Shown: in pieces, positions 3,588 through 52,815 of the stretch
How positions within the stretch are numbered: the stretch's first letter is position 1
Layout: each line of letters opens with the position of its first letter
NCBI GenBank assembly: GCA_913009875.1
Contig: CAJVYS010000002.1
Coordinates: 2,073-66,072 of the forward strand
From: an uncultured Gammaproteobacteria bacterium
GTDB taxonomy: Bacteria; Pseudomonadota; Gammaproteobacteria; SZUA-152
Direction: 5' to 3'
DNA: 64,000 bases
Notes under the pieces: generated by a model
Seen by the model: the letters and a program-made list of their open reading frames with translations, nothing else
What the model was told of the DNA's origin: nothing
Database searches by the model: none
Translations under genes and position numbers: made by a program

Positions 3588-4429
3588 TGAAGCTGGGCGG
3601 GAGAGAGCACGGCTTCACCCTGGTGGAGATGGTCACCGTGATCGTGCTGCTGAGTATTATCGCCGTGGTGCTGGCGCCGTTCATCGCCAATGCGATACAG
3701 GCCTGGCATGACGGCAAGGCGCGCGCCGAGCTGGTAGCGCGTGGCCGTCTGGCCCTGGAACGTCTGGCGCGTGAGGTACGCCAAGCGGTGCCCAACAGTC
3801 TCGAAACCCTGGATGCCGGGCAGGGCATTCAGTTCGTGCGCTCGCGGGCCGGGGGGCGCTATATCGAGCGTTTCGACAATTTCGGTACGGCATTCACGCG
3901 CATGAATCGGCGCTTTCGCAAGAACGTTGCGCTGGCCAATGGGCTGTACAAAATGGGCACCGGGCTGAGCGTGTCGGCCGGAGACATTCTGGTGATCGGC
4001 AATACCTCCCCGGTGGCCTTGAAGGCCTTTCCCGGCAATGGTCCCGCGGTGCTACTGAGTGGAATTAGCGCCACTACCTCGGCGGCCGACGGCACTAATC
4101 AAGGACAGATTCTGGGCTTTGCCAATCACCGCTTTCCGGTCGATTCGCCTGGACGCCATTTCACCATTGCGGATCAGACCGTGGAGGTCGGACTAACGGG
4201 AAATACCCTGCGCTGGCACACGGCTGCGGGCCTGACCAATTACGATGCCAATGCCGATTGGGGGGCATCGGACCCGGTGCTGGTGGACGGCGTCAGTGCC
4301 GTGAGCTTTACCTATGCGCCAGGCACGCCAGCGGCGACCGGCGTATTGCGTATCGACCTGCAATTGGCCACGGACACCAACAACAGTATTCGTCTCTATC
4401 ACGAAGTGCATGTAAGGAACACGCCGTGA
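3587..4429 (+). CDS. Prepilin-type protein (MshO/PilW-like)
   Basis: The N-terminus ...EHGFTLVEMVTVIVLLSIIAVVLAP is a prepilin motif, and the gene overlaps its upstream neighbour with TGATGA. Confidence 0.6.
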   Translation: MKLGGREHGFTLVEMVTVIVLLSIIAVVLAPFIANAIQAWHDGKARAELVARGRLALERLAREVRQAVPNSLETLDAGQGIQFVRSRAGGRYIERFDNFGTAFTRMNRRFRKNVALANGLYKMGTGLSVSAGDILVIGNTSPVALKAFPGNGPAVLLSGISATTSAADGTNQGQILGFANHRFPVDSPGRHFTIADQTVEVGLTGNTLRWHTAAGLTNYDANADWGASDPVLVDGVSAVSFTYAPGTPAATGVLRIDLQLATDTNNSIRLYHEVHVRNTP

Positions 4430-4480
4430 GCAGACCTGCCTACATCAAGTTTGCTATGCCTTTGCCGCTAATCAGATTAC

Positions 4481-4556
4481 GTAGGAGTGGACCCCTGGGC
4501 CGCGATTCGTCGCTGACAGAGATACCACCATCGCGGCCCGGGGGTTCGCTCCTACG
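4481..4556. repeat. REP-B hairpin: gtaggagtggacccctgggccgcgat ... atcgcggcccgggggttcgctcctac
   Basis: It is a near-perfect inverted repeat. The same family recurs at 20001-20073 and 26420-26490. Confidence 0.7.
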
Positions 4557-4563
4557 GGGTGAT

Positions 4564-4965
4564 ATGGGGCCGGCCGCGATGGGTACTGGCCTGGCCGCCC
4601 GTCAACGCGGTGCCTCGCTGGTGATGGCTATATTTCTCATCACCGCCCTGGCGGCGCTGGGTGGGTTACTCACGCAACTCTTGGTGCTGGGATCTGAAGA
4701 GACCATCAACGAATGGTATTCCGCCCAGGCCCTGTATGCCGCCGAGAGTGGTGTGGAGTGGGCGGCGCGGGATATCAGCGCCGGTGGTGCGGGCAGTATC
4801 AGTAACGGTGTGGTGCTGACGAACCAAGCCTGGATGACAACCACGGTGAGTCCGGTGAGTATCGGCGGGCGTACCCTGTACACCATCACCAGCACCGGCA
4901 GCGCCGGAGGGCTGGTATCAGCCCCGCGCACGCAGCGGCGTATCGTGGTGCAGTTTATGCCGTGA
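4564..4965 (+). CDS. PilX/MshP-like pilus assembly protein; the start is uncertain (4564 or 4579)
   Basis: The N-terminus ...ARQRGASLVMAIFLITALAALGGLL resembles the PilX_N motif (QRGAaLivaLifL). It is the last gene of the pilin block. Confidence 0.5.
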   Translation: MGPAAMGTGLAARQRGASLVMAIFLITALAALGGLLTQLLVLGSEETINEWYSAQALYAAESGVEWAARDISAGGAGSISNGVVLTNQAWMTTTVSPVSIGGRTLYTITSTGSAGGLVSAPRTQRRIVVQFMP

Positions 4966-5034
4966 TGGCAGGGCAGGTGGGATAACATCCCATTGCGAAC
5001 GATAGGGTACAGGGCTGTGGGAGCGGCTTCAGCC

Positions 5035-5081
5035 GCGAAGCATTCTTGGCACTGCCTTCGCGGCTGAAGCCGCTCCCACAG
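5035..5081. repeat. REP-A hairpin: ctgtgggagcggcttcagccgcgaa ... ttcgcggctgaagccgctcccacag
   Basis: The inverted repeat is perfect. The family recurs at 6108, 18741, 27240 (half) and 33471. Confidence 0.75.
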
Positions 5082-5122
5082 TAGTTTTTTGCCGCAGCCA
5101 AAGCGATTGAAGGGATAAAATT

Positions 5123-6049
5123 ATGTTCGGTCTTTTTTCAAAACAGTCCAACGCCGGCTATGCCGCCCTGGTACCCGGAGAAGCGGGCCTCTGCGTGGCC
5201 AGCATCGCCGCCAACGGCAAGCCGCCACGGCTGGAGGCCTGCGACTTCATGCCCTGGCCGGAAGGCGGGGATAAGAAAAAATTGCTGGCCGACGCGGTGC
5301 GCCGCCACCGGCTGGAAAAGCGCGCCTGTACCACGGTGATGGAACTGGACGACTACACGGTGTTGAGCGTAGAGGCGCCGGACGTGCCGCCGGATGAACT
5401 GCGGGCGGCGATTCGCTGGCAGATCAAGGATCTGATCGATTTTCATATCGACGACGCGGTGGTGGATATCTTCGATGCACCGCCCAGTGGCGCGCATGGC
5501 CGGCAGAATACGCTGTATGTGGTGGTGTCGCGGCTTTCCCGGGTGCGTGAGCGTGTCGACCCGCTGCAGGACGCCGAGGCCAATCTCACCACCATCGATA
5601 TTCCCGAACTGGTACTGCGCAATATTACCGCGCGCCTGCCGGAAGATGAGACCGGGGTGGCTTTCATCTATCTCACCCGTGAGCGTGGGTTGTTGATTAT
5701 TACCCGTCAGTCGACGCTGTATTTCGCCCGCACCCTGGGTATGGGTTATGCCGCGTTGAGTGATGGCGATCATGCGCAGTACGACCAACTGGTGCTGGAG
5801 GTGCAGCGCTCGCTGGATTATTACGACCGTTATTTTGTGCAGCCGCCGGTGGCGGGGTTGGTGCTGGCACCCTGCGAGGTGCCTCTGTCGGGGTTGGAAG
5901 GGTATCTGCACGATTCGCTGGGATTGGCCGTGCGTAGTCTGAACCTGCAAGAGATCATTGCCTGTGATCACGCCATGGACACCGCCACCCAGGCGCGCTG
6001 TCTGCCGGCCATTGGTGCGGCCTTGCGGCAGGAGCAGGCTGTTTTGTAA
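5123..6049 (+). CDS. MSHA biogenesis protein MshI-like (PilM-like N-terminal domain)
   Basis: The N-terminus MFGLFSKQSNAGYAALVPGEAGLCVASIA and the overall architecture resemble MshI-family proteins. It sits next to the pilin gene block. Confidence 0.5.
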   Translation: MFGLFSKQSNAGYAALVPGEAGLCVASIAANGKPPRLEACDFMPWPEGGDKKKLLADAVRRHRLEKRACTTVMELDDYTVLSVEAPDVPPDELRAAIRWQIKDLIDFHIDDAVVDIFDAPPSGAHGRQNTLYVVVSRLSRVRERVDPLQDAEANLTTIDIPELVLRNITARLPEDETGVAFIYLTRERGLLIITRQSTLYFARTLGMGYAALSDGDHAQYDQLVLEVQRSLDYYDRYFVQPPVAGLVLAPCEVPLSGLEGYLHDSLGLAVRSLNLQEIIACDHAMDTATQARCLPAIGAALRQEQAVL

Positions 6050-6050
6050 C

Positions 6051-6209
6051 AGCGGGCCATGCCCGCGATTGCTTTGCCTTTCACCAAGAGGTAATGGATT
6101 TGGACATTGTGGGAGCGGCTTCAGCCGCGAATGAAATCTGCCTTCTTCGCGGCTGAAGCCGCTCCCACAAGTTATTGTCTTTCGCTGTTTTTCGCGGGCA
6201 TGGCCCGCT
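6051..6209. repeat. Composite palindromic element, about 160 bp. The outer inverted repeats are agcgggccatgcccgcga / tcgcgggcatggcccgct, and the inner REP-A hairpin is at 6108-6169.
   Basis: The outer inverted repeat is seen directly. A second copy with the same architecture lies at 33424-33575. Confidence 0.6.
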
Positions 6210-6539
6210 CCTCCACAAATAGCACAGTAGGTTGGGGTGAACGTTTTTTGTGAACCCCAACGTTCCCGCCGGTGATGCACAATATTGTGCGCCCGCCCTT
6301 TTTGTGCGCGCTATTTTGGTGCGCCAGCCGCCGGGCTGTTCTTTCTCTTCGCCTTAACTCTTTGATATATCTGACCGTTTCTATTCTGGCCTGGGTCTTG
6401 CTATTAGGTTGGCATCCCTTTGCGCCGCTGGCGTGCCATTCGGCGCTGCGCCCGCAGATGGGGTTAAATTTCCAAGGGTAGAGTGCCACCAACGGGTGGT
6501 GCCGGATCACGAAAACTAAATTATCGAGGAATTTTATCC

Positions 6540-7577
6540 ATGCGTAAGAGCATCCTTGCCGCAAGCATTGCCGCACTCACCGCCCCCGCCGCCTTTGCCG
6601 GCAGTGTGGTTTCCGACGCCGATATCAACCTGAATGGTGGCATGACGGCGGGTTATTTCTACACCACCAATACGGGCAGCAACAATAATGAGAACTACCA
6701 GGTCTCCGACTTCATGGTCGAGCTGTCTGGCGAAGCCACCGAAGGCGTAGGCTTCGTCGGCGCCTTTGGCACCATGGCCGGCATCACCGTGCTGGACGGC
6801 GGCGTGAATAACAGCGTCTATGACTACGGCTTCCAGTACGGCTGGCTGACCGTGGCCCCCATGGAGGGCCTGAGCATCGACGCTGGTATGCTGGCCACCA
6901 ATATTGGCTACGAAGTCGCTCCCTCCTACGCCAATCCGCATGCCACTATCGCGGCTCTGTGGGGCGGCCAGCCGGTTTACTATCCCGGTGTGCGTGTCAA
7001 TTATGAGGCCGGGGATATGGGCTTCTACGCCGAGGTCAATGATGACAGCATGGAAATGACGCCTGCAACTTCTACTACTTCTGCAGTCTACTATTCAACA
7101 GCCGCTTGGGCCGCGGGTATCAACGGCGCCGCCGGTTCCCTGGAGTACGCCGTCAGCTATTACAACTACAACGGCTACAAGGACCTGATTGACGTCATCG
7201 TCTCCGCCGACCTGGCCGGCATTCCTGTGGCAGCCAATTTCGACTATCACCTGCTGGAGAACGCCCCGGTCGCTGGTGGTGATGACAGCGCCTACGGTAT
7301 TGCACTCTACGCCACCCCCAGCTTCGGTCAGGTGACTGTGCCGGTACGTGTGGAATTCCTCAGCGATGGCAACAGTGGTGTCTATAGCGTGAACGGCGTT
7401 GGCGTGGATAGCGCCACCACGCTGACCATCACCCCGACCTACAACTTCTCGGACAACACCTTCGTGCGCGCCGAGCTGTCCATGGTCAGCAGTGACAACA
7501 AGATCTTCGCCGATGACAAGGGTGTGGCGGAAGACACCAAGACCTCCTTCGCCGTGCAGGCCGGCTTTACCTTCTAA
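6540..7577 (+). CDS. Outer-membrane beta-barrel (porin-like) protein
   Basis: It has a signal peptide, MRKSILAASIAALTAPAAFA, alternating beta-strand-like composition and the C-terminal motif ...VQAGFTF ending in Phe. A Shine-Dalgarno-like gaggaa lies upstream. Confidence 0.6.
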   Translation: MRKSILAASIAALTAPAAFAGSVVSDADINLNGGMTAGYFYTTNTGSNNNENYQVSDFMVELSGEATEGVGFVGAFGTMAGITVLDGGVNNSVYDYGFQYGWLTVAPMEGLSIDAGMLATNIGYEVAPSYANPHATIAALWGGQPVYYPGVRVNYEAGDMGFYAEVNDDSMEMTPATSTTSAVYYSTAAWAAGINGAAGSLEYAVSYYNYNGYKDLIDVIVSADLAGIPVAANFDYHLLENAPVAGGDDSAYGIALYATPSFGQVTVPVRVEFLSDGNSGVYSVNGVGVDSATTLTITPTYNFSDNTFVRAELSMVSSDNKIFADDKGVAEDTKTSFAVQAGFTF

Positions 7578-12297: not shown

Positions 12298-12330
12298 AAA
12301 AAGCCACCCCGAAGGGTGGCTTTCGTGCAT
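12298..12330 (-). terminator. Rho-independent terminator for the lipoprotein gene
   Basis: On the minus strand it reads gccacccttcggggtggc followed by a T-run. Confidence 0.55.
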
Positions 12331-12348
12331 TGATTACAATTTCAGTCC

Positions 12349-14778
12349 CTATGGCACCAAGATACTGGTTCCGCTCCACAATTCGCCATCAGAACCATTT
12401 GAGCGAATCATGTCGCTGTAATTGCTTCCTTCGGCATAGTGAATGAAGCTGAAGGTATCTACACTCTGCGCTGTTAAGGCGCTGGTTTCTCTGAATTGGA
12501 AGTCGACTGGGTGAGCGCTATCAATGCTTGAGTCTGTGTAAAGAACAAGATAACTGTGCGTACAATCAGCGCACGTTGCATTTTCTACATACCACTCAAA
12601 ACTAATAGCAGGATCAACGCCATTAGCGAAGCTTCCTGTTTCCGGGTCAGCGGCAGTTGCGGCGGTGCCTGTATCATTGAATGTCGTGATTTCACCGTCG
12701 TTATCAAACGCATTTCCTGCAATATCCGCACGCGTAAGTGACTGGGCAGAACCGCAGTCCGCTATTGCGGCTTCAAAATCAGCGAAGCTATAGGGTGTGA
12801 TAGGCGCACCTAGTCCACCGTTAGCAGTATCATCCCATCCTGACTCTGTTGTGCATGCCAGCGATGAGCCGCTGCCAGAACCAGAACCTGTAGCGATTAT
12901 GCTGTTGATAACATCACTAATAGCCGTGCTGTTGAAGGCCGATCCGCCTGAATTGCTAGCTCCGGCGGGAGTGTAAGACCCTTCATAAACCGCATTGTTA
13001 TAGACGGAAAAGATTCTCTGCACATCGTTATCAGAATCCTCATTCAGATAGGCGTAGGTCGTTGCCACTGAGGCGGGAGTTTCATATGACAGTATCGCAG
13101 CCCCACTTACAGTCTGAATAGACCATGTGCTGGTTGCGACCTTATTAACTGAATGAAAACCGGTAGCATTATTGCGATTGACGTAATCCGTCAAATAGAA
13201 GTTTGCCGTACCTGATACTCCCGAGCCAACCAGTTCAACGATCATGCCTTGAGAAAGAGTACACAGGGTGTCACTACTGCTGGATGAATATGCGGGCTCA
13301 ATACAGCCCTCAGGTGAGCGTTTAAAACCTGCCCATACAGCCTTAGGTTCACTACTTCCGTCATCAACCCAAGCAGATGAAGATAGCAAGTCAGTCAAGC
13401 TAGCTGGCTGGGTAATCAAAGGAGTATCATCCAAGGTATAAGAAGCCGTATCATATGTAATGCTCATTATGTATGCCTTGGCACCCGCAGAGAAAACAGC
13501 GGTAGAGTCAACCGCTGAGCTAAAGCCGCCATTATCCGAACCATCAAGATAGGCCGAAATGTTTAAACCGGCTGCATCGACCACTTGAGAGCTGACGGTA
13601 AATGTTTCAACATCACAAGTAAATGTGCCGCTGCCATTGCTGTTAAAGGCGACTGTGCAGTTACTTAAATCATCACCGGCAGTTGAAGGAATCCAACCAT
13701 TATTCCCCAGATATACATCTGGCGATGAGGTAAGCGGCTCAAAAGTGCTTGAGGTGAAATTGTATGTGTACTGATTTTCTGTCACCACACCGCTGGCAGC
13801 GGTGATAGTGCCATATTCAATCTCTTGCCAGTCGGGGTTAATTTCACCCCATACCCAGTTAAAGCCATCAGCAAGCTGTTGTTCGAGTGTGGTGTTGGCT
13901 GCACTATTGGTCGCCTCAACCACGGCCACTTTGGTTTCAACTGTAGTGGTATCTACAGCAACATTGCTTGTTGTCGTTACAGCATCTGCATCAATAGAAC
14001 CATCAGTGGAAGCCGCTTCTGCTGTCTCAACTTCGGCAGTGATGGCCGCAAGCTGGGTCACTACTTCTTCCACCACAATCTGAATCAATGCGTCAAAGGC
14101 TTCATCAATAGTAAGATTTACACTGCCATTAGTGATGGCGGCTTCAATGGTTTCAATATTATTTGCCAGGGTACGGGCTGTTACCTGGGCAATATTATGC
14201 AAGGTAGCGTAATCACTAGCGGCCGCATTAGTGGAATCAGCTTTTGCTACGACATAGTCGGTGAAAAGTGAAACCGCAGCAGGATCCTTACCCATACTCG
14301 AGATTAACGCAGCTTCGGCCGCATCAACGGTCATATTAGGATTGGCTTCGATTTGGTTTTGTACCATTGTTGTTAACGGACTAATGAATGCAGACTTACC
14401 TATAGGTGCACTAAGAACAAACTTCTTGCCTACCGCCATTCCCGTATCTGAGTCTATCGCTTCAGCAGGCACTTCAACAAATATTGGGTATTGATTTAGC
14501 AGGGTCGCGTCCGTGACGTCGAGCGTATACGCGCCACCAGTCCCTGTGGTTGCAGAAGGCTCACCAGTATTACAGATTTTATTTTGATTGATATCAAGAC
14601 AGACTTTCGCGCCAGACAAATAGCCGTCAGCTACGATGCCCGATGTAGATCCAGGTGTTAAAGTCACAGGATTGTCACCGCCACCGCCACAACCCGTGAG
14701 GGCCAGCAGCAGTGCCGAGGGAATCAGTACATTTGTCCTTTGGTTATTATTTTGTCCAGTCAGCCAACGAAAATTCAT
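12349..14778 (-). CDS. Large lipoprotein of unknown function (809 aa). It has low GC and is probably horizontally acquired.
   Basis: The signal peptide carries a lipobox, LLLALTGCGGGG. An SGSGSGSS linker is present. The gene is about 48% GC against a backbone of about 64%. It has its own terminator and is flanked by AT-rich DNA with IS and MITE remnants. Confidence 0.6.
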   Translation of the reverse strand: MNFRWLTGQNNNQRTNVLIPSALLLALTGCGGGGDNPVTLTPGSTSGIVADGYLSGAKVCLDINQNKICNTGEPSATTGTGGAYTLDVTDATLLNQYPIFVEVPAEAIDSDTGMAVGKKFVLSAPIGKSAFISPLTTMVQNQIEANPNMTVDAAEAALISSMGKDPAAVSLFTDYVVAKADSTNAAASDYATLHNIAQVTARTLANNIETIEAAITNGSVNLTIDEAFDALIQIVVEEVVTQLAAITAEVETAEAASTDGSIDADAVTTTSNVAVDTTTVETKVAVVEATNSAANTTLEQQLADGFNWVWGEINPDWQEIEYGTITAASGVVTENQYTYNFTSSTFEPLTSSPDVYLGNNGWIPSTAGDDLSNCTVAFNSNGSGTFTCDVETFTVSSQVVDAAGLNISAYLDGSDNGGFSSAVDSTAVFSAGAKAYIMSITYDTASYTLDDTPLITQPASLTDLLSSSAWVDDGSSEPKAVWAGFKRSPEGCIEPAYSSSSSDTLCTLSQGMIVELVGSGVSGTANFYLTDYVNRNNATGFHSVNKVATSTWSIQTVSGAAILSYETPASVATTYAYLNEDSDNDVQRIFSVYNNAVYEGSYTPAGASNSGGSAFNSTAISDVINSIIATGSGSGSGSSLACTTESGWDDTANGGLGAPITPYSFADFEAAIADCGSAQSLTRADIAGNAFDNDGEITTFNDTGTAATAADPETGSFANGVDPAISFEWYVENATCADCTHSYLVLYTDSSIDSAHPVDFQFRETSALTAQSVDTFSFIHYAEGSNYSDMIRSNGSDGELWSGTSILVP

Positions 14779-42720: not shown

Positions 42721-42776
42721 GGCGCCGAGCGCCACAGGATGTGTGACACCGCGGAGCGGTGTCACAAGCAAGCCCC
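42721..42776. repeat. 50-bp double-palindrome element: ggcgccgagcgcc followed by tgtgacaccgcggagcggtgtcaca
   Basis: A near-identical copy lies at 59927-59975. Confidence 0.55.
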
Positions 42777-42807
42777 TGAGCCGTCCCACCAACCAGCGGA
42801 GACAAAC

Positions 42808-43140
42808 ATGGAACACAGCGATTCCTACCAAGCCATGCTCGACGTCGTGCAGGCCTTCCACGACAAGCACGATTTCAAAAACAAGGGGGGCGAGGAGATG
42901 CTCTACCGCATCGCCCTGATGACGGAAGAGCTGGGTGAGATGGCCGAGGTGGTGACCAAAGGAAAATCGAAAGAGCAGTTGGCCGAAGAAACCGCCGATC
43001 TGTTCATTCTCCTCATTGGCACCGCCATTTCCGCCGACTTCGACCTCAAGCAGGCCTTCTGGAAGAAGATGGATAAGATTATGCAGCGTGAGTCGAAAAT
43101 GGTGAATGGCCGTGTCCGCGTCTCCGAGTTCCGCAAATAA
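42808..43140 (+). CDS. Small MazG-like nucleotide pyrophosphohydrolase
   Basis: It is about 110 aa long, with EEMLYRIALMTEELGEMAEV ... ETADLFILLIG matching the MazG EExxE motifs. Confidence 0.65.
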   Translation: MEHSDSYQAMLDVVQAFHDKHDFKNKGGEEMLYRIALMTEELGEMAEVVTKGKSKEQLAEETADLFILLIGTAISADFDLKQAFWKKMDKIMQRESKMVNGRVRVSEFRK

Positions 43141-44816: not shown

Positions 44817-44893
44817 GCGCCTGTAGCTCAGCTGGATAGAGTACCGCCCTCCGAAGGCGGGGGTCACAGGTTCGACTCCTGTCAGGCGCGCCA
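44817..44893 (+). tRNA. tRNA-Arg (anticodon CCG)
   Basis: It has a cloverleaf fold with acceptor stem gcgcctg/caggcgc, anticodon loop ctCCGaa, T-arm ggttcgact and a CCA end. Confidence 0.85.
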
Positions 44894-44955
44894 TTTCTTA
44901 TTATTAATCAATAAGTTACAGCACTTTCCATTTTCACTTATGGTTTTCTACCTTT

Positions 44956-45150
44956 GGCACAAGCGGGCACAGCCATCGTAACTATTAGCTAACATTCATT
45001 TTTAAAATTGACCGTTAGCCAACATAGTGGATTTTGTGCCCATTTTAGCCTGTGCCCAGATTGTGCCCACCCTGTGCCATGTTTGAAATTTCGGGTTTAA
45101 ATATTAGACGGTATGAGCTCAATTTTGATTGTTAGCTTCCGTGGGCACAG
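44956..45150. promoter_or_regulatory. Iteron-like array of TGTGCCCA-type repeats immediately downstream of tRNA-Arg
   Basis: tgtgcccat, tgtgcccag, tgtgcccac and tgtgccatg occur at a period of about 11 bp. There are also gggcacag copies and an inverted gtgggcacag. Confidence 0.35.
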
Positions 45151-45396
45151 AAACCATGAAGTAGTCCGGAATCGAGTTAGGTCCGAAGGAAATTTAAACG
45201 AAGGAATTCTAGTTGGCCGATACTTGGAGTTTTGCCAATAACCATACGTTCTTACTAATGCCCCATAATTGTTGTTTGTCAGTGTATTTGATTTCAAATG
45301 CCCATCACGCAATGTCAATGGAAGCATCAATAGCTTGCGCAATCAAAACATCAATGCTAGAATCAATTTAAGCCAGTAGAAGGAGCCTACAATTCA

Positions 45397-46677
45397 ATGA
45401 ACAAAGTTACCCAATTCCCACGGGCGGTACGCTCGACACCTGATCCACTTGGCTTGTACCTTCGCCCAAACCATAATGATCACAAGGTTTTATCTGAGCT
45501 GATCACTGCTGGGGATACGGCTTTTTGTGGCGCTGTCTTAGATCCCTCCCATCTCAAACGCCAAAGCGAACTACGTGACCAAATTTTAGATAGGCGGATT
45601 GATTTAATCTTGGATCCAAAAACTCAAGAGGCTGCAGCTCCTGGCAGATTTTCGGAAAACCTAGGAAAACTTCCTTGGGTCGGAGGTCGTTGCAACACAT
45701 TTCATGATTTCTCTGGTACACAGGGAAGGCGGCGCGTAACTGAGCTAGCGAAATTCGCGATTGATGAGGGGTTTACTCAAGTAATGGCCCCAACACATTA
45801 TTTACAATCAGCTGATGATCCGTGGCTTGAGCTAGATATTGATAATGCTATCAAATTAAGAAATCTCTTAGACAGGCACTCGCAGCAACGTATCCCGATT
45901 ATTTACTCGTTAGCTATTCCGTATAAAGTTTTTCGTAACTCTGAGCAGCGAAATATATTGATCAATGAGCTTCAGCGGGCACCAATCGATTCTCTATGGT
46001 TAAAAATCGGTAGTATGGGATCGCATGCCACTTCTACAGGAATTATTAATTACATCAAGGCTTCAGAGGAATTTCATACCCTAGGTGTTCCAATTGTTGG
46101 CGACTATATCGGCGGAATGGCTGGGCTATCATTGCTTTCATTTGGCGCAGCGGGTGGAATAGCTCATGGTATAACCTTTGGTGAAAGGTTTGACCCAAGC
46201 AGTTGGGCCAAGCAGCCAAAGAAGGGAAGCTTTGGCCAAGAACGTCGTGTTTATGTTGCAGCAATCGACATGATGCTTAAACCTAAGCAAGCTGAAATGC
46301 TATTTGAAGCATCAGTCAGGGCAAAATCATTATTTGGGTGCAGAGATAAACACTGTTGCCCAAGAGGCATTCAAGACATGGTCGGTAATCCTGCAAGACA
46401 TTTTATGGTGCAACGATTAAAACATGTTTCTGAATTATCACAGATCCCTGAACAGCTTAGACCTCAGCGCTTTCTGGAAAGACATCTTCGACCGGCAACA
46501 GACTTGGCTGTATCCGCAGAACGTATAGATTGGAAAGATGATGAAATGATGCGAAAGACTCAAAAAAATAGAGCGCGATTAGATAATCTTCGGGTTGCGC
46601 TAGGCAACCAAGCAGTGAAAAAACCGCCAAGCTCTTTCTCTCAGCACCCTAAAACTAGAGTGAGCAGGGAATCCTGA
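45397..46677 (+). CDS. Hypothetical protein, 426 aa, low GC (about 45%); the island cargo gene
   Basis: It is a long ORF with a Shine-Dalgarno sequence (aaggag) upstream. No family was recognised by eye. Confidence 0.5.
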   Translation: MNKVTQFPRAVRSTPDPLGLYLRPNHNDHKVLSELITAGDTAFCGAVLDPSHLKRQSELRDQILDRRIDLILDPKTQEAAAPGRFSENLGKLPWVGGRCNTFHDFSGTQGRRRVTELAKFAIDEGFTQVMAPTHYLQSADDPWLELDIDNAIKLRNLLDRHSQQRIPIIYSLAIPYKVFRNSEQRNILINELQRAPIDSLWLKIGSMGSHATSTGIINYIKASEEFHTLGVPIVGDYIGGMAGLSLLSFGAAGGIAHGITFGERFDPSSWAKQPKKGSFGQERRVYVAAIDMMLKPKQAEMLFEASVRAKSLFGCRDKHCCPRGIQDMVGNPARHFMVQRLKHVSELSQIPEQLRPQRFLERHLRPATDLAVSAERIDWKDDEMMRKTQKNRARLDNLRVALGNQAVKKPPSSFSQHPKTRVSRES

Positions 46678-46721
46678 TGTTTTCAATAAACTATGTTTTA
46701 ACAAACAAGTACACGTAATCT

Positions 46722-47063
46722 ATGAATGCGAACGTCATATCTCGAAAGTTGGAAGCTATACAGACCAAAGGCGCTATGCGTTCGGTTGATGTAGCCAATC
46801 TGCTGGGCACAAGGCCTGAAACAGTTTCTCGTTGGAACCAAGGTAAGGCATTTCCACGCCGTTCAGCTGAAAAGACCCTTCTTGAACTCGAGTTTATAGT
46901 TGACCAACTCTCTGATTTTTACGAACCACAAGAAGCACGAATGTGGTTATTTTCACCACAGAAACTCCTAGTCGGTAGAAGACCAGCTGATTTGATTCAA
47001 TCTGGTGAAACAGAAGTAATTATAGAACTTATAGAGCAGCTGCGCGATGGCGTGTATATCTAA
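46722..47063 (+). CDS. Xre/MbcA/ParS-family antitoxin (HTH plus a DUF2384-like toxin-binding domain)
   Basis: It is 113 aa long, has a helix-turn-helix (VDVANLLGTRPETVSRWNQGK) and ends 14 bp before the RES gene. Confidence 0.75.
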   Translation: MNANVISRKLEAIQTKGAMRSVDVANLLGTRPETVSRWNQGKAFPRRSAEKTLLELEFIVDQLSDFYEPQEARMWLFSPQKLLVGRRPADLIQSGETEVIIELIEQLRDGVYI

Positions 47064-47077
47064 TTTGGGGGGCTGAT

Positions 47078-47617
47078 TTGATCCACAACCCTGAATTACT
47101 AGAAAGGCTAGCTGAGTTTGAAATCAAGCCATTCAGTTCTGAAGTTTACAGAGCTTGCAGGAAGGGATTAGATCCGACTACATCGTCGACACGCGGTGGC
47201 CGCTGGGCAAAACGTAATGGTTGCTCCGTGCTTTATACTAGTCTTACAAGCGATGGTGCATTAGCCGAACTTAGCTTCCACTGGGGTCAATTGAATCCAG
47301 TACCTACTAAGCAAGCGTTTCTGTATCGGCTACGTGTTACTACGAAACAAAGCCTTCGTCTGATAATGGCAGATTTAGCCACGTTAGGGGTCAATGAAGG
47401 GCAGTATTCAGAGATCCCTTACCCTCTCTGTCAAGAAATTGGGGAAGCAGTCGGTTTTCTTGGATGCGATGGATTAATTGTTCCCTCAGCAAGATGGAAT
47501 TGTGAGAATTTAGTGTTGTTTACAGATTCCCATAGTTTGGACGAGCAGCTTGAGATAGTAGGTTTGTCCGAAGTGGATTGGTTGGGCTGGGCCAGAAAAA
47601 ATGGGGTACAGTTATAA
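47078..47617 (+). CDS. RES-domain toxin (MbcT/ParT-like NAD+-targeting); it has a TTG start
   Basis: The R...E...S motif residues are present (TRGGRW ... ELSFHW ... LIVPSARW). The protein is 179 aa long with gggggg as a Shine-Dalgarno sequence. Confidence 0.75.
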   Translation: MIHNPELLERLAEFEIKPFSSEVYRACRKGLDPTTSSTRGGRWAKRNGCSVLYTSLTSDGALAELSFHWGQLNPVPTKQAFLYRLRVTTKQSLRLIMADLATLGVNEGQYSEIPYPLCQEIGEAVGFLGCDGLIVPSARWNCENLVLFTDSHSLDEQLEIVGLSEVDWLGWARKNGVQL

Positions 47618-47625
47618 ATTACTAC

Positions 47626-48324
47626 CTAGCCAGCAGCAAAGGATACAGCTTCATTTCTGAAAAAGGATTTCACTAAAGCCATATCCTGGGCAATCAACTC
47701 CAAGTCGATGAATGTTCTCTCCCGCAGGGATTCGCCTTTTTTGAGTGGTGACCTTGCCGTACCAGTTTGCCGCATGTAGTTCCATACCAACTCATCTGGG
47801 TTAAGGTCGGGTGCATAGGGCGGCAGTATGAATATACTCAGACGGCCCTTTAGACTGGCGACATATTCTTTTACCTTTTTGCTCTTATGCACGGGATGGC
47901 CATCCGTAATAACATAAATGGGCTTCTTGCGATTGCGAATCAAGTCTTTCAAACATTCGATACAAACATCAGCATTAAAACGCTCCGTATAGACCCGGTA
48001 CCAAAAACCACCGCTGTTCGATAGGGCTGAAATGGCATTAACACCTTGCCGTTGACCACTTGTTTTTACGGTTGGTGTTTGACCTTTTAGGCCCCAGGTT
48101 CTCATTAATGGATCATCCGAACGTATTGATGCTTCATCTAGCCAGAATATCTCTGCGCCTTGTTTTTTCGCGCTTTTCCTGATTTCAGGATAAGTCTCCT
48201 CTTTCCACTTTTTAATTTCAGCATCATCCCGTTCATAAGCTCGGCGCATCGGTTTTTGTGGGCTAAGCCCCAGACGATGAAGCAAATCACCAACAGGCAA
48301 GTGAAAAAAAGAATCTGGTCCCAT
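47626..48324 (-). mobile_element. IS630/Tc1-family transposase gene, 5'-truncated (DDE domain only, 232 aa)
   Basis: The IS630 motifs [29 protein letters not shown] and [15 protein letters not shown] are present. The upstream N-terminal HTH region is missing, with a stop 2 codons upstream in frame. Confidence 0.7.
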
Positions 48325-48814
48325 TTCTTAACGATCTCGAATTTGACGGTGAACAGGTGCAGGTATTTCTTGATCTGTTGAATATTCTTACAGTGTGCGA
48401 AGAACAGGACTGGATGGAATGTTTCGTGAAATGATGCCACCTTGAGAAGGTCTGCATGAAACCAGAGTATATGCTTCGTCTTATTCTAATAGTGATTGAT
48501 CTGCAGGAAAGCAAAATAAATGGCGGCAAAGCGATCCGGGCAGATGCTGGCAGAAGCGCTTGCGGTGTAAAAAAACAGGTATGGCGGGGTGTCGTTAAGT
48601 TGCCCGACATTCAGCGGTCGGGCCACAAACGCCTGCTATGGGCCGGGTGATTACAGTCAGGCATGAAGGGCTGGCGTCTATTGGGCCAATGCGCCGATGC
48701 TCCACAGGATGGCGCCTCGCTGCGGTATGACCACTTTTTGGATTTTGTCCGCGAAGAAATTACCGTCGATCAGCATCGTGGAGAGACGTGAACTTATCCC
48801 CGCAGTACGGCTTT

Positions 48815-50035
48815 CTAGGCGCGCTTTTCCGTCCTGCCCGACATGCTGCCCGGCAGGGTCACGCCATTGCCGACGGAGCAGTCCTGGTAGTCGATGCTGA
48901 TGCGGTCGCCGGCATAGGGCCGGAACAGGGTGTCGGCAAAGCGGACGTGGTCGGGATGCTCGCGATAGCTGTCGATCACGGCTTTATGGGTAAAGCGCAC
49001 CAGCCAGCAGAAGCGGTATTTGGCACCTTCCTGGACGGCCTCGCCAGTGAAGACGTCGCGTACGCCGGGAATGTTAGACAGGATCTGCCACCCTTTGCTT
49101 ATCATGGCCTGAGCTTGTTCATCGCTCATGTGCTCGACGACGTTGTAGATAATCAAGTGCTCTATAGGGGCCCAGGGTTCGCACTGCGTCAATACTTCAG
49201 CGGCCCGTCCGGCGCTACCCCACAGCCGCAAGCAACGCTTTACCTCAGTGCAAATGGCCTCTTTTACCCCTTGTTTTAAATCGGTAAAACTGCCTTCCCG
49301 GTCGGCCTTTACCTGGGCGCGCATGGTCTTTGCCGCGACATCGGACAGCCCGGTGAAGTAGTTGATCTTGGCGACACCCAGTGAGCTGAGGCGGCGATAC
49401 TGTTCTTCGTTCAGTCCACTGCCGCCGTGCAATACCAGGGGGATGTCGACGGCGGTATGAATCTGTTTCAGACGCTGAAAATCGAGTTTGATGCGCCCCT
49501 TGGAACGACCCTGCACGGTGCCGATGGAGACGGACAGAAAATCGATCCCACTGCGTTCGATATAGGCTTTGGCCTCGACGGGCAGGGTCAGGGCCGAGGC
49601 ATCTTCGCTGTCATCCGAGCCCACATAGCCCACCTCACCGACCACCGGCACATTGCAGCTGTGGGCCATGGCGGCGATTTCTTTGCTCAGTTTGATATTG
49701 TCGGGCAGATCCCGGTTGGAGGAACAGAGGGTGATGCCGTTGCAGCCCAGGTTGATGGCGCGCCGGGCGGATTCGAGGGAGCTGGCATGGTCGAGCTGGA
49801 TGGCGATGGGCACGGAGGCGCGCTTGGCGGCGGCTTCCACCGCCGGCATCATGAGTTCCAGGTCGTAATGGGCGAAGTGGTGTTCGGCCACGCTGAGGAT
49901 CACCGGCGCGCGGGAAGTTTCGGCGGCGTCGACAACGGCCTCAAGAAAATCCAGGCTGACCAGATCAAAGGCGCCTACCGCATAGTTGTTTTCATAAGCG
50001 TGGTGCAGCATGTCACGCATGTTAACCAGCGCCAT
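48815..50035 (-). CDS. Class IIB fructose-bisphosphate aldolase (about 290 aa) fused to a C-terminal Dabb (stress-responsive alpha/beta-barrel) domain of about 100 aa
   Basis: The N-terminus aligns to 285-aa class II FBAs (MALVNMRDML ... IQLDHASS ... LHGGSG). The C-terminus, HLIIYNVVEH ... YREHPDHVRFADTLFRPYAGDRISIDYQ, is Dabb-like. It is the last gene of the cbb operon. Confidence 0.7.
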   Translation of the reverse strand: MALVNMRDMLHHAYENNYAVGAFDLVSLDFLEAVVDAAETSRAPVILSVAEHHFAHYDLELMMPAVEAAAKRASVPIAIQLDHASSLESARRAINLGCNGITLCSSNRDLPDNIKLSKEIAAMAHSCNVPVVGEVGYVGSDDSEDASALTLPVEAKAYIERSGIDFLSVSIGTVQGRSKGRIKLDFQRLKQIHTAVDIPLVLHGGSGLNEEQYRRLSSLGVAKINYFTGLSDVAAKTMRAQVKADREGSFTDLKQGVKEAICTEVKRCLRLWGSAGRAAEVLTQCEPWAPIEHLIIYNVVEHMSDEQAQAMISKGWQILSNIPGVRDVFTGEAVQEGAKYRFCWLVRFTHKAVIDSYREHPDHVRFADTLFRPYAGDRISIDYQDCSVGNGVTLPGSMSGRTEKRA

Positions 50036-50098
50036 GTTGTTTTTCCCTCGTTATCCTGCGTGTTTTTGACAATCCACTATTTCGACAATCCTCCAGAG

Positions 50099-50455
50099 TC
50101 ACTCCTCGTGCAGGGAGTTCTCCAGCTCTTCCTCCATCAATGCCAGCGAGGGGGCGCGCAATTTTGATGCGGCAAAATGGTAATAGTTCAGCTTGCACCT
50201 GACCGGCTCATGCAGGGCATCACGCCCCTGATCCTCAAACGCCACCCAGGCCAGCACCGGCAAGTCGCCCTGCCGTTCATTGGCACAGACCCATTCGCGC
50301 TCTTCCAGAAGCATGACCATCCCCGGATAGCCCGGTAGGGCAATACGCATCGGGCAGGGGTAGTGCAGCTTTGCCCGGCGCCAAAGATTGTAGAGCTTGG
50401 CGGTGACTTCGTCGTCCCGCTGGGCATACACGGGTACATCCCGGATTCGGCTCAC
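50099..50455 (-). CDS. Hypothetical protein (118 aa) within the cbb operon
   Basis: The ORF lies between cbbO and the aldolase gene on the same strand. Confidence 0.4.
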   Translation of the reverse strand: MSRIRDVPVYAQRDDEVTAKLYNLWRRAKLHYPCPMRIALPGYPGMVMLLEEREWVCANERQGDLPVLAWVAFEDQGRDALHEPVRCKLNYYHFAASKLRAPSLALMEEELENSLHEE

Positions 50456-50472
50456 GCAGTTCCTTAATAAGG

Positions 50473-52815
50473 TTAGCGGGTCAGGCTGGCAAACAGCGTC
50501 GGCAGTTTTTCCGGCAAACGCTCGACGTGATCGATGATGGTGTAATTGTTGACGCCGAAAATACGCTTTACGTAGCGGTCGGCGTTGCGATCCAGGGTCA
50601 GACAGTAGCTCATCACGCCCTTGCTCGCCAGCTCCTCTACGGCCTTCTTGGTATCCATGCGCAGATGCTGGGGATCGCGCTCATCGATATCCGCCGGTTC
50701 ACCGTCGGTCACCAGCAGCAGCAGTTTCTTCCGCTCCTGCTGATTCAACAGGTGCCGGGCGGCGTGGCGCATGGCGGCACCCATGCGCGTGGATAGCCCG
50801 CCCTGCATACCGGCCAAGCGTGCCTTGACGTCATCGTCCCAATACTGGTTGAAATCCTTGAAGCGGTAGTATTGCACGTCGTGGCGGCTGTCGGAGGAAA
50901 AGCCATGAATGGCGAACGGATCGCCTACGCCGTTGATGGCGGTGGAGACCAGAGCGGCCGCCTCACGGGTCAGTTCCAGCACGGTTTTATCCGAACCGTC
51001 TATCTTTTCGTTGGTGGATTCAGACAGATCGAGCAACACCACCACGCTGAGGTCACGATTCTTGACCACGTTGCGCATGGTGATGCGCGGGTTGGGTTGT
51101 TCGCCCATGCGAATGGAGATCATGGCATCGATGGCGGCATTGAGGTCGATCTCGTCGCCGTCTTCCATGTTGCGCACCCGCTGCACACCTTCCGGCTGCA
51201 GCATGTCGATGATCTGTTTGATGCGCTGGGTGACGGGTTTGTGCTCGATCAGAATCTGGTCGATAAGCTCCGGGTCACCCTTGGGCTGATGTCGTTCGTA
51301 GACCGTGGCCCAGTCCGGGCGGTGCAGCTGCACCTGATAGTCCCACTCCTGATAGTGGTAGGGTTCAGATACCGGCTCTTTGCCCCACATGTCATTGAAA
51401 CTGACCGTGGCGACGCCGGCATCTTCGTAGGGCATGAATTCAGTGGGGCAGACCCAGATTTCCTGGGCGTCATCACCGGCCAGCTCACAATCCACTTCAT
51501 GGGCCATCTCAATAGCCGACACATATTTGCGTACCTGGCGCTGGCTCGCGGCGACATACTCTACGCCATCCTGCCAGGCGAATTCGTCGAAATCCCACAG
51601 CAGGCGATTGTCATCACGATAGGGAATGCGCAGCGATTCGAGGATGCGCAGGCTGGGTACGTCCCTGCGCACCGCGAGTATGTTGAACAGTTCCAGCCCC
51701 ATGTGCCAGGAGAACTGGGGATTGGTCTTGTTGGCCTCGATATTGGTGTGGAAGCGTTCGGCCAGCGTGTTGAGTTCGGCATCATCTCCCTTGACGGCGC
51801 TGTCGAGCAGCATCAACGCCATCCGCTCCAGCAAGGTAACGGTGGGGTGCTGCGGTGCATCCGCATAGTCGATACTGAGCAGCGCACCCCAGAGTTTTTT
51901 CAGGCCGGGAAAATTCTGCACGGCGCAATACTCGACCCGTGCATCTTCCATGAAGCCGATGAAAAACATCTGCGCCGGGCTGAGCTGTTCGGCGGAGAGT
52001 GGCTCGTGGGTATACATCAGGTGTGCGCCCTGGTGGACGACCATGGCGCGGTAAAGCTCGTGCCCCTTCACATCGTTAATGCCATCCACCGCATCGGGCA
52101 GGTGCATTATGCGAAATTCCAGATAGGGTTTGAAGCCTTCGTGATCGGCGGCGCTGGGACGCAGGAAGAAATCACGCCCCCACAGGGCACGCAGATAGAA
52201 ATTCATCTTGCGTTGATTATCGATAAATAGCGTGCCGCGGCGTTCCTTCTGCAGCATCGCCTTGGCGTCTTCGGTTTGTAGGCTGAAATAAGCCACCTGC
52301 CCCGGTAAATCACGGGCATAGGCCTGGGCGCCATAAAGTGCCCAGCGTTTCAAGCCACTCAGCGTCAGCCTGGAGAGCAACTCATCCATGATGGCTAGCA
52401 TGGGGCGTAACCCACGGGAGGATCTGGCGGCGAGTTGGTGGATCAGATTCAGGTAACCGCGCAACAGCTCCGGGTCGCCGAGGCGACGGGCGACCGTCGG
52501 CAGAGAGGAAAACAGCAGGGCGATGACCTCACCGGAGGTCATGGAAGAGAGCTTCATGGCCGCGGCGATACAATCGCGGATGATGTCGTCGCCACATTCC
52601 TTGGTGACAGCCGGCATATTTTCTAAAAAAGAAGTGACCAGATTGCCGCCACGGCCCAGGTTTGCCAGACCTTTGGCCCCCTCCAGGTAGTCATGCAGAG
52701 CAATGGCCGACATGTTGCGTGCCGCGTCGTGGAAGGTGGCATCCAGAGTGTCTTTCAGCTCAGGTGCGGCCCCTTCCAGGATCTCACGGTAGTCGTCCAG
52801 GTCAATGCTCGTCAT
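50473..52815 (-). CDS. cbbO: RuBisCO activation protein CbbO (von Willebrand factor A domain)
   Basis: The protein is 780 aa long and has a C-terminal VWA domain with a MIDAS motif (VLLDLSESTN). It lies directly downstream of cbbQ. Confidence 0.8.
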   Translation of the reverse strand: MTSIDLDDYREILEGAAPELKDTLDATFHDAARNMSAIALHDYLEGAKGLANLGRGGNLVTSFLENMPAVTKECGDDIIRDCIAAAMKLSSMTSGEVIALLFSSLPTVARRLGDPELLRGYLNLIHQLAARSSRGLRPMLAIMDELLSRLTLSGLKRWALYGAQAYARDLPGQVAYFSLQTEDAKAMLQKERRGTLFIDNQRKMNFYLRALWGRDFFLRPSAADHEGFKPYLEFRIMHLPDAVDGINDVKGHELYRAMVVHQGAHLMYTHEPLSAEQLSPAQMFFIGFMEDARVEYCAVQNFPGLKKLWGALLSIDYADAPQHPTVTLLERMALMLLDSAVKGDDAELNTLAERFHTNIEANKTNPQFSWHMGLELFNILAVRRDVPSLRILESLRIPYRDDNRLLWDFDEFAWQDGVEYVAASQRQVRKYVSAIEMAHEVDCELAGDDAQEIWVCPTEFMPYEDAGVATVSFNDMWGKEPVSEPYHYQEWDYQVQLHRPDWATVYERHQPKGDPELIDQILIEHKPVTQRIKQIIDMLQPEGVQRVRNMEDGDEIDLNAAIDAMISIRMGEQPNPRITMRNVVKNRDLSVVVLLDLSESTNEKIDGSDKTVLELTREAAALVSTAINGVGDPFAIHGFSSDSRHDVQYYRFKDFNQYWDDDVKARLAGMQGGLSTRMGAAMRHAARHLLNQQERKKLLLLVTDGEPADIDERDPQHLRMDTKKAVEELASKGVMSYCLTLDRNADRYVKRIFGVNNYTIIDHVERLPEKLPTLFASLTR

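Follow-up and report, generated by a model that had tools for sequence, protein, structure and literature searches.

A three-gene operon next to tRNA-Arg(CCG)

The segment studied here, positions 44817-48814 of a 64-kb stretch of DNA from an uncultured gammaproteobacterium (the window; all window positions are given on that stretch), begins with a gene for tRNA-Arg(CCG) on the plus strand (44817-44893; called by ARAGORN and scoring 66 bits in Rfam). An insertion starts directly after the 3' end of the tRNA. It opens with a leader (44894-45150) that holds an array of short repeats, the TGTGCCCA iterons, and that is conserved in two other loci (L098 and L099; L numbers denote the loci that we fetched). 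Then follow, on the plus strand, a putative operon promoter and operator (45311-45367), identified by ATGTCAAT-type boxes, a TTGCGCAA palindrome, and conservation across loci; the gene for a 426-amino-acid protein, which we will term U426 (45397-46677); the gene for a 113-amino-acid Xre protein that resembles the antitoxin MbcA (46722-47063); and, with a TTG start, the gene for a 179-amino-acid RES protein that resembles the toxin MbcT (47078-47617). U426 is predicted to form a (β/α)8 barrel and a C-terminal helical domain, with a Cys3-His cluster; Xre has an N-terminal helix-turn-helix (HTH) and a C-terminal toxin-binding domain; and RES carries the Pfam RES domain and is of the MbcT-like NAD+ phosphorylase type. 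Downstream, on the minus strand, lies a 5'-truncated remnant of an IS630-family transposase (47626-48324; 232 amino acids, with DDE_3 and a winged-HTH tail). The spacer from this remnant to an aldolase stop codon (48325-48814) rises in GC content from 0.44 to 0.60, and the right junction of the insert is somewhere inside it.

A sequence-only reading of this DNA had taken the 426-amino-acid gene to be the most likely cargo or defense gene of a decayed integrative element. U426 is not separate cargo but the first gene of a three-gene module: it is linked to Xre and RES in 70 of 71 loci, the operator lies upstream of it, and in actinobacteria a divergent arrangement keeps the linkage. We hold it very probable that the module has three components. 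We also think it likely, with less confidence, that the segment is a tripartite MbcTA-type module, with U426 as an integral partner whose fold is like that of tRNA-guanine transglycosylase (TGT), in a decayed tRNA islet. What is new is this tripartite form of the MbcTA-type RES-Xre module, with its large unannotated protein family. No third gene for RES-Xre, TGT-like or otherwise, was found in the literature that we searched, and an earlier description elsewhere is possible.

U426 travels with Xre and RES

The sequence-only reading was right that U426 is uncharacterized by sequence: it matches nothing in Pfam, NCBIfam, PADLOC, PHROGs, or the sequences of the Protein Data Bank (PDB), and its predicted fold may be TGT-like. 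Its homologues match no family model and are labelled "hypothetical protein" in every source that names them. A collection clustered at 90% identity contains 248 full-length homologues, all unnamed or "hypothetical" and without Pfam domains. At 50% identity there are 1033 clusters with E ≤ 1e-3; the best 150 of these match in a single stretch, and their full-length members have about 415-460 amino acids.

The first two contexts that we inspected had the same trio of an unknown protein, a 113-amino-acid open reading frame (ORF), and RES. A genome-wide scan with U426 returned 80 loci, from records labelled Alpha-, Beta-, and Gammaproteobacteria, Binatia, Eremiobacterota, and other metagenome-assembled genomes. 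To quantify linkage, we used the 71 non-redundant loci with at least 1.1 kb of sequence past the U426 homologue. An Xre homologue lies at most 400 nt past the U426 homologue, with RES downstream, in 70 of the 71 loci, and in 69 of these the distance to RES is at most 1 kb. U426 and Xre are separated by a median of 42 nt, and Xre and RES by a median of 15 nt (14 nt in the window); in distant members the genes overlap by 1-4 nt. The linkage holds across U426 identities of 32-54% in genome loci, and down to 24% on plasmids, while the contexts that surround the module are otherwise unrelated between loci.

U426 homologues are also found on 14 plasmids. On the three that we inspected (35%, 27%, and 24% identity), RefSeq annotates, in order, "hypothetical protein", "antitoxin Xre/MbcA/ParS", and "RES family NAD+ phosphorylase". 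Two of these three modules are next to genes of the plasmid backbone, namely repB/repC (replication) in Aminobacter and a gene of the ParB family (partition) in Roseivivax. When plasmids were searched with Xre by tblastn, 37 records matched, and all 14 of the U426-positive plasmids were among them. On actinobacterial plasmids, a "hypothetical protein" of 383-409 amino acids is encoded on the opposite strand, divergently upstream of Xre-RES (5 of 5 examined, L106-L110: Mycobacterium avium pHP17a, Clavibacter michiganensis pCM2, Mycolicibacterium chubuense, Gordonia bronchialis, and Rhodococcus antarcticus). Alignment of these proteins to the U426 family with hhalign gave probabilities of 97.4% and 98.9%, and a hidden Markov model built from 75 U426 sequences matched all five of them in hmmsearch, with E values of 1e-23 to 1e-37. 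By these profile comparisons, the actinobacterial proteins are remote homologues of U426. (The RES ORF on the G. bronchialis plasmid is unannotated.)

Together, the comparisons strongly support the view that this Xre-RES clade has U426 as its obligate partner in the genome, and does so in two gene arrangements. The association is ancient and specific to a clade of MbcTA-like systems. It is not needed by all RES-Xre pairs, because two-gene versions exist, such as MbcTA itself and an Xre-RES pair without U426 in Pannonibacter.

The module has a lower GC content than its flanks in 61 of 69 loci, and no U426 was found in 50,697 phage records or in IMG/VR. The low GC content, the occurrence on plasmids and in islets, and the absence from phages are consistent with a host-side role in addiction or abortive infection. 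As expected of a toxin, RES is the component that is most often disrupted, by a frameshift, a deletion, or an interruption (L009, L026, L046, L072, and L050, the last by a 2.35-kb insertion), with U426 and Xre looking intact. Conversely, U426 is truncated or frameshifted and RES is apparently intact in L064 and L066. Frameshift or assembly errors are possible in metagenome-assembled genomes, so these disruptions should be read with that in mind.

A few members of the family have further features. The Roseivivax (L085) and Dinoroseobacter (L086) plasmids keep the three-gene order and have apparently lost the Cys3-His cluster of U426. When the Dinoroseobacter protein was used as a query for annotated remote relatives, all 28 matches were hypothetical and without a Pfam domain. 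On this plasmid, the module is followed by a UvrD-helicase gene and a gene for an ATP-binding protein, which might be a defense pair. In a betaproteobacterial metagenome-assembled genome (L001), a 347-amino-acid PIN_12 protein is encoded directly after RES (12311-13354), and Fic, a phage-type integrase, and an IS91 transposase are in the neighborhood.

A predicted MbcA-like antitoxin and MbcT-like toxin

The pair downstream of U426 is complete, as had been claimed. Xre aligns over its full length to MbcA (6fkg_C, E = 3e-19). Its scores in the family models are borderline: it reaches 24.1 bits with PF09722, 0.4 under the cut-off of 24.5, and its match to NF049845 (E = 7.5e-11) falls short of the curated cut-off. 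It has the Xre HTH and the Xre/MbcA/ParS C-terminal domain, its gene is directly upstream of that for the toxin, and its median identity to the window, 60.5%, is the highest among the three proteins. RES matches PF08808 with E = 4.5e-18 (66 bits, cut-off 23.2). RES alone had no phmmer match in the PDB; the best match of a profile of 26 RES sequences is MbcT (6fkg_A, E = 3.4e-12), ahead of the Res protein of Pseudomonas putida. R25, R42, W43, E64, P136, A138, and R139 of RES are invariant or nearly so across 68 homologues. Both Xre and RES are neutral to acidic, unlike U426, which is basic.

These matches strongly support an assignment of Xre as an MbcA-like antitoxin and of RES as an MbcT-like toxin, from a family that phosphorolyses NAD+ to nicotinamide and ADP-ribose-1''-phosphate (ADPR-1''P). 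MbcT itself is an NAD+ phosphorylase that makes ADPR-1''P (PMC6436930). By homology, RES would degrade NAD+ and Xre would neutralize it.

The closest characterized system is MbcTA of M. tuberculosis (Rv1989c/Rv1990c), which has an antitoxin that matches over its full length, the toxin that is the best solved relative of RES, the same order of antitoxin and toxin, and a short gap between them. It differs in being described as a two-gene operon; here a barrel protein of about 430 amino acids comes first, with a regulated promoter upstream of it. Given the linkage of U426 in 70 of 71 loci and the promoter that it has in common with Xre and RES, we file this module as a variant and not as a canonical, two-gene RES-Xre system. 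The Xre-RES system of P. putida also has a RES toxin that is neutralized by Xre and repeats in its promoter (here the boxes overlap the −35 and −10 elements), but it is distant (E = 0.0086 for 9r35 and 0.33 for 6gw6 with the RES profile), it has no third gene, and the operator here is made of direct ATGTCAAT boxes and a TTGCGCAA palindrome.

RES domains also occur in stand-alone proteins. The aRES proteins are reported to defend against phages with a RES domain that breaks NAD+ down to nicotinamide and ADPR-1''P (10.64898/2026.01.28.702374), which supports a defense role for RES modules on mobile islets. However, aRES proteins are non-operonic and stand alone, with 300-600 amino acids and RES plus PF18870, whereas the RES described here is a single-domain protein of 179 amino acids that comes with Xre and U426. 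We therefore rejected a classification of the module as an aRES defense system.

One predicted promoter upstream of all three genes

In the window, ATGTCAAT-type boxes lie at 45312-45319, 45324-45331, 45348-45355, and 45360-45367. The TTGCGCAA palindrome (45335-45342) contains a candidate −35 element (TTGCGC, 45335-45340), which is followed after a 17-nt spacer by a candidate −10 element (TAGAAT, 45358-45363) and then by a ribosome-binding site (GAAGGAG, 45379-45385). The 90 nt before U426 are conserved in L089 and L091 (the 72% and 88% relatives), despite the differing contexts.

The layout is common to the family: a ATGTCAAT box, then TTGCGCAA at the −35 position, then a second box that overlaps the −10 element (GATATA or TAGAAT), and a third box. 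ATGTCAAT occurs with at most one mismatch in 63 of 80 non-identical upstream regions (mean 1.32), versus 15 of 388 random windows from the same loci. The offsets of the boxes from TTGCGCAA are fixed (+13, −23, and +25), and TTGCGCAA itself lies 48-54 nt ahead of the start codon in most loci. In contrast, a box is found upstream of Xre in only 7 of 73 loci. Because a generic sigma-70 scan did not call this promoter (TTGCGC has 3 of the 6 consensus positions), we relied on conservation across loci as the evidence for it. This conservation strongly supports a single promoter upstream of U426 that is shared by the three genes and is overlaid by the ATGTCAAT boxes and TTGCGCAA.

The likely regulator is Xre. 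Residues T34-V35-S36-R37-W38 of its HTH are invariant. In P. putida, the Xre-RES complex represses its own promoter via repeats in the promoter region (PMC12204516). By analogy, the HTH of Xre probably binds the ATGTCAAT boxes and autoregulates the operon.

The predicted fold of U426

The structure prediction that the sequence-only reading had suggested for U426 gave a confident model (AlphaFold2; predicted local distance difference test, or pLDDT, 93, and predicted template modelling score, or pTM, 0.91). We regard the (β/α)8 barrel of this model as certain. The eight-stranded β/α barrel (residues ~19-295) is followed by a β-hairpin and a helical domain with the cysteine cluster; the N- and C-terminal tails are conserved yet modelled with lower confidence. 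The protein is basic, with an isoelectric point (pI) of 9.6 in the window and a median of 9.4 in the family, whose net charge is +9.

Across 75 sequences, the conserved residues are D73, W94, D104, P132, H134, W143, D147, W201, D236, a glycine-rich stretch that ends in H257-G258, C315, C320, C321, D327, H335, R340, and R355. In this set, conservation reaches at least 97% for each residue of the Cys3-His cluster, a putative zinc site (C315, C320, C321, and H335). When the actinobacterial proteins are included, only R23, D/E73, P132, G240, G250, G258, and E/D263 persist across the superfamily. In the model, D73 is at the end of β3 and E263 comes after β8.

The best structural matches of the model belong to the tRNA/DNA-guanine transglycosylase superfamily, but the evidence on the fold is mixed, as Foldseek searches of the PDB and BFVD returned only generic triose-phosphate isomerase (TIM) barrels. 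In Tgt, D102 is in the base pocket and D280 is the nucleophile. Judging from the order of the strands, D73 and E263 of U426 would be on the same strands as these two residues. The Cys3-His cluster is in the same topological place as the zinc site of TGT, but with another spacing (C-x4-CC-x13-H in U426 and C-x-C-x2-C-x25-H in TGT).

Several observations weigh against placing U426 in this superfamily as an active enzyme. The known members (Tgt, QTRT1/QTRT2, DpdA, and Cap10 of CBASS, the cyclic-oligonucleotide-based anti-phage signaling system) have no detectable sequence similarity to U426, which also lacks the GGLAVGE and DSGG motifs of TGT. None of 40 U426 family members matched the Pfam TGT model (PF01702) at E values up to 10; the family profile had 0 matches in the PDB; and hhalign of the family to Escherichia coli Tgt gave a probability of 0.2%. 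H134 and H257 are not conserved in the actinobacterial members, and the Cys3-His cluster, present in most clades, is missing from the roseobacter branch on plasmids, so part of the family could be non-catalytic, like QTRT2. Also, both the zinc site and the pairing of D73/E263 with D102/D280 are predictions from strand order and topology. Genes for QueC, QueD, or QueE or other 7-deazaguanine genes were not seen near the U426 loci that we inspected. On balance, we see the case for U426 as a true, divergent member of the TGT superfamily as evenly poised, and we lean somewhat towards its being catalytically active.

The islet and its integration site

GC content is 0.58-0.68 in the flanks, falls to 0.40-0.48 over ~44900-48600, and has recovered by 48800, which bears out the claim of an AT-rich segment directly past the tRNA. 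On the left, the sequences of the window, L102, and L104 part within a few nucleotides past the CCA-proximal end of the tRNA. On the right, the window ceases to resemble both L102, with its empty site, and L092 (aldolase 92% identical) at the aldolase stop codon (48815). As the resemblance ends exactly there, the insert is ~44894-48814.

To compare this site among relatives, we looked in metagenome contigs for exact copies of the 3'-terminal 35 nt of tRNA-Arg(CCG) and obtained nine loci. Two of these, L102 and L104, are from close relatives of the host. L102 (PlsC 87%, GmhB 84%, and aldolase 90% identical) has just 115 nt of 66%-GC DNA from the 3' end of the tRNA to the aldolase stop codon: this is the empty site for which the sequence-only reading had proposed a search. 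In L104 (PlsC 94% identical), the gap between the tRNA and the aldolase is about 2.3 kb and encodes HipB (HTH_3) and HipA (HipA_C, E = 4.9e-47); the pair is at 461-2029 of metagenome contig VAPL011109320.1, exactly where the window has U426-Xre-RES. L098 and L099 come from other backgrounds. They have the identical tRNA 3' end and share with the window the first ~220-250 nt past the tRNA, including the TGTGCCCA array and its inverted copy. The cargo of L099 is AbiEi/AbiEii (AbiEii, E = 1.5e-47). The tRNA-Arg(CCG) site is thus a cargo-swap locus that holds U426-Xre-RES, hipBA, AbiE, or nothing. (The stretches concerned are L099 124-2360 and L098 350-628, and L099 also has a 109-amino-acid ORF without a Pfam match.)

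An earlier attempt to find the empty site through aldolase homologues failed: the L092 contig stops 300 nt past the gene, and synteny is not kept in L094. No record of an identical aldolase exists in the data that we queried, and megablast matched the flank to no plasmid. The contig with an exact match to PlsC stops 14 nt past the tRNA, and L090, a contig with the identical protein, breaks off inside the IS630 remnant.

The segment abuts the 3' end of a tRNA, has a deviant composition, varies in cargo between strains, and carries a remnant of an insertion sequence, as other tRNA-associated islets and toxin-antitoxin hot spots do. It differs from them in having a common iteron leader and no detectable integrase or attachment-site (att) direct repeat. 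Specifically, no integrase-like ORF is present within 44894-48814, as the sequence-only reading had noted, and no integrase was found in any fetched locus, including the fetched part of L099. The sequence-only reading had also proposed to look for a second copy of the end of the tRNA, as a direct repeat. None is there: the 3'-terminal 20-mer does not recur in the window with up to 3 mismatches. Nor are there significant island-bounding direct repeats in the window, and the tRNA is the only Rfam match in the islet. Since both an integrase and tRNA-derived attL/attR are missing, the element is either a decayed remnant or arrived by another mechanism.

The IS630 fragment is decayed too. It matches DDE_3 (E = 2.6e-34) and covers positions 101-290 of the 299 of NF033545, so that, as first described, only the DDE part is kept. 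The N-terminal part is unrecognizable upstream of the fragment in any frame, and without the N-terminal HTH the remnant falls short of a complete DDE transposase. Given that L102 has an empty site, together with hipBA in L104, the truncated IS630, and the lack of an integrase or att repeat, the original view of the segment stands: 44894-48814 is a decayed integrative islet on the 3' side of tRNA-Arg(CCG). As an island it is ordinary in kind, yet it is well documented by the comparison with the empty site and with swapped cargo.

The clustering of the TGTGCCCA iterons is genuine: the 64-kb window has six exact matches, and 115 bp of it hold four of them, as three direct copies (45035-45042, 45051-45058, and 45062-45069) and one inverted copy (45142-45149). 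There are also degenerate copies at 45073-45080 and, as GGGCAC, at 44965-44970. Elsewhere, the iterons are not conserved upstream of U426 homologues, save for two GGGCAC in L089. Because the leader and its iterons occur in islets with other cargo (AbiE in L099), they belong to the end of the islet and not to the cargo; the comparison places them at the end nearest the tRNA, in a family of tRNA-Arg islets whose toxin-antitoxin or abortive-infection cargo is interchangeable. For the same reasons, absence upstream of U426 elsewhere and presence in islets with other cargo, we rejected the iterons as an operator for Xre. The suggestion that they are integrase arm sites survives in part: an array at the end of the islet, common to L098 and L099, fits such sites, and the iterons may have this role, but no integrase was found in any fetched locus.

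The module has other ties to tRNAs. In L008, L013, L047, and L012 it is within a few hundred nucleotides of other tRNAs (Arg(CCT) upstream, and Phe(GAA) or Ser(CGA) downstream), which suggests that it is repeatedly associated with tRNA-targeting elements. The contig of L089 (72% U426 relative) starts with an apparent tRNA 3' end (GTTCGATTCTGTCCCTGGCCACCA, within positions 1-40), for which ARAGORN gives no call, the tRNA being truncated. The two GGGCAC copies in L089 are ~330 nt upstream of U426. This copy of the module may also occupy a tRNA islet.

Some differences and neighbors lie outside the islet. L102 has 4.7 kb of genes with 66-76% GC between plsC and the tRNA (2617-7311) that are missing in the window; by eye, they seem to encode an OmpA-like protein of 585 amino acids, a small GTPase-like protein, and an HD-GYP-like protein. 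In the window, a 133-amino-acid MazG-like pyrophosphohydrolase ORF (42739-43140) lies in another dip in GC content (0.50-0.53), between glyS and a gmhB-like gene, and this ORF is conserved in the relatives L087, L102, and L104. Past the islet, 48815-52815 encodes a class II fructose-bisphosphate aldolase with a fused Dabb (stress-responsive α/β barrel) domain, followed by a 118-amino-acid ORF without a Pfam match and a 780-amino-acid VWA protein (CbbO/NorD-like). In L092, the 92% relative is next to RuBisCO and carboxysome (CsoS2) genes, and the host's lifestyle is probably marine chemoautotrophic.

What U426 might do

We propose that U426, Xre, and RES would be co-transcribed and would act as one functional unit, in which Xre, alone or in a complex, would repress the operon at the ATGTCAAT and TTGCGCAA sites and RES, once freed from Xre, would deplete NAD+. 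U426 would be an enzyme that uses two carboxylates, D73 and E263, with contributions from R23 and, in most clades, from the zinc-type Cys3-His cluster. Its substrate would be a ribosyl-N-glycosidic compound, attacked at C1' of the ribose: either a nucleic acid, as the pI of about 9.4 would favor, or an ADP-ribosyl compound derived from NAD+. U426 would then tie the outcome of NAD+ depletion to a cue from a nucleobase or nucleic acid, or to the processing of the ribosyl product that the toxin makes. U426 is most likely such an add-on and not an antidote, as two-gene relatives exist, RES is the gene that is most often broken, and U426 can be damaged while RES is apparently intact (L064 and L066). 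Any one specific role for U426 is at best a tentative suggestion. In its full form, with U426 founding a highly divergent, hitherto unrecognized branch of the transglycosylase fold that performs ribosyl-glycosidic chemistry and is the obligatory third part of MbcTA-type systems, the proposal is speculative, and we would not bet on it. If it is true, then these modules would be three-component, enzyme-coupled systems of immunity or addiction by NAD+ depletion and not simple toxin-antitoxin pairs, and the possible reactions of U426 would include base exchange or excision on a nucleic acid and the transfer or processing of ADP-ribosyl species derived from NAD+.

The enzyme proposal has to be set against the possibility that U426 is a regulatory or sensor subunit, a TGT-derived barrel that has given up catalysis, as in QTRT2, and that binds a ligand, a nucleic acid, or a phage product to control the release of RES from Xre or the binding of Xre to DNA. 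The variability of H134 and H257 in actinobacteria and the loss of the cysteine cluster in one branch would fit a sensor, as would the conserved tails with low pLDDT, which suggest docking to a partner, the unusual conservation of Xre, which might reflect constraints from more than one partner, and the working of two-gene relatives without U426. However, R23, D/E73, and E/D263 are conserved across the superfamily, and the many invariant glycines and prolines around the C-terminal face of the barrel look like an active site, so we consider a sensor unlikely, though it deserves serious thought. U426 could also be a counter-enzyme, that is, a second, enzymatic antidote analogous to DarG that reverses or detoxifies the product of RES, for instance through a base exchange that frees a nucleic acid of an ADP-ribosyl adduct, or through the processing of ADPR-1''P. 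Both proteins would then perform chemistry at the ribosyl C1' (the TGT fold and the RES/ADP-ribosyltransferase fold), a basic U426 would be suited to binding nucleic acid, and the first gene of the operon would be expressed whenever the toxin is made. This idea is at odds with the apparently intact RES in L064 and L066, where U426 is truncated or frameshifted, with the existence of two-gene Xre-RES systems, with the presence of a complete MbcA-type antitoxin, and with the activity of MbcT, the closest characterized toxin, which depletes a metabolite rather than modifying a macromolecule; we think it improbable.

It is much less probable still that U426 is an unrelated passenger that hitch-hikes with an Xre-RES addiction module. 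Such modules do stabilize neighboring DNA, and this one is mobile and is often beside plasmid rep or par genes. But a passenger would not be expected to stay linked in 70 of 71 loci over 32-54% identity (to 24% on plasmids) while the surrounding contexts are otherwise unrelated, to keep the linkage in a divergent arrangement in another phylum, to overlap its neighbor at the stop and start codons in distant members, or to have the single conserved operator and promoter upstream of it. As for the segment as a whole, the lack of an integrase and of a direct repeat of the tRNA 3' end might suggest native, fast-evolving intergenic or accessory DNA that is next to a tRNA by coincidence. The 115-nt empty site in L102 refutes this, and hipBA at the same site in L104, the leader that is common to L098 and L099 (with AbiE as cargo in L099), the drop in GC content of ~15-20 points, and the IS630 remnant all speak against it, so we give this explanation almost no credence.

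If U426 is an integral component, as we propose, then the module joins other systems in which a toxin-antitoxin pair and a conserved third gene form one operon. In the known tripartite systems, the third component is a chaperone, a fragment of a split toxin, or a small repressor. We know of no such system whose first gene encodes an enzyme-like TIM-barrel protein of 430 amino acids. The systems that we compared are the toxin-antitoxin-chaperone system HigBA-SecB, ω-ε-ζ, PaaR-PaaA-ParE, and HipBST (PMC9325769).

Implications

RES-Xre systems (MbcTA, ParST, and Res of P. putida) have been treated as two-gene modules, and they are under study as drug targets in M. tuberculosis. The finding that an unannotated barrel protein with the look of an enzyme always accompanies a large clade of MbcTA-like pairs provides a concrete three-gene system to test, in a module that is spread across Proteobacteria, Actinobacteria, and metagenome-assembled genomes labelled Binatia and Eremiobacterota. 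The U426 family deserves a family model, and pipelines that annotate Xre-RES should look for U426. Also, the cargo-swap locus at tRNA-Arg(CCG), with its common iteron leader, could be mined for more toxin-antitoxin or defense modules. An active barrel would bring a new reaction to the arms race over NAD+ and ADP-ribose, or would put the transglycosylase fold to another new use, besides those in DpdA and Cap10. A sensor would reveal how cues of infection are linked to a metabolic toxin.

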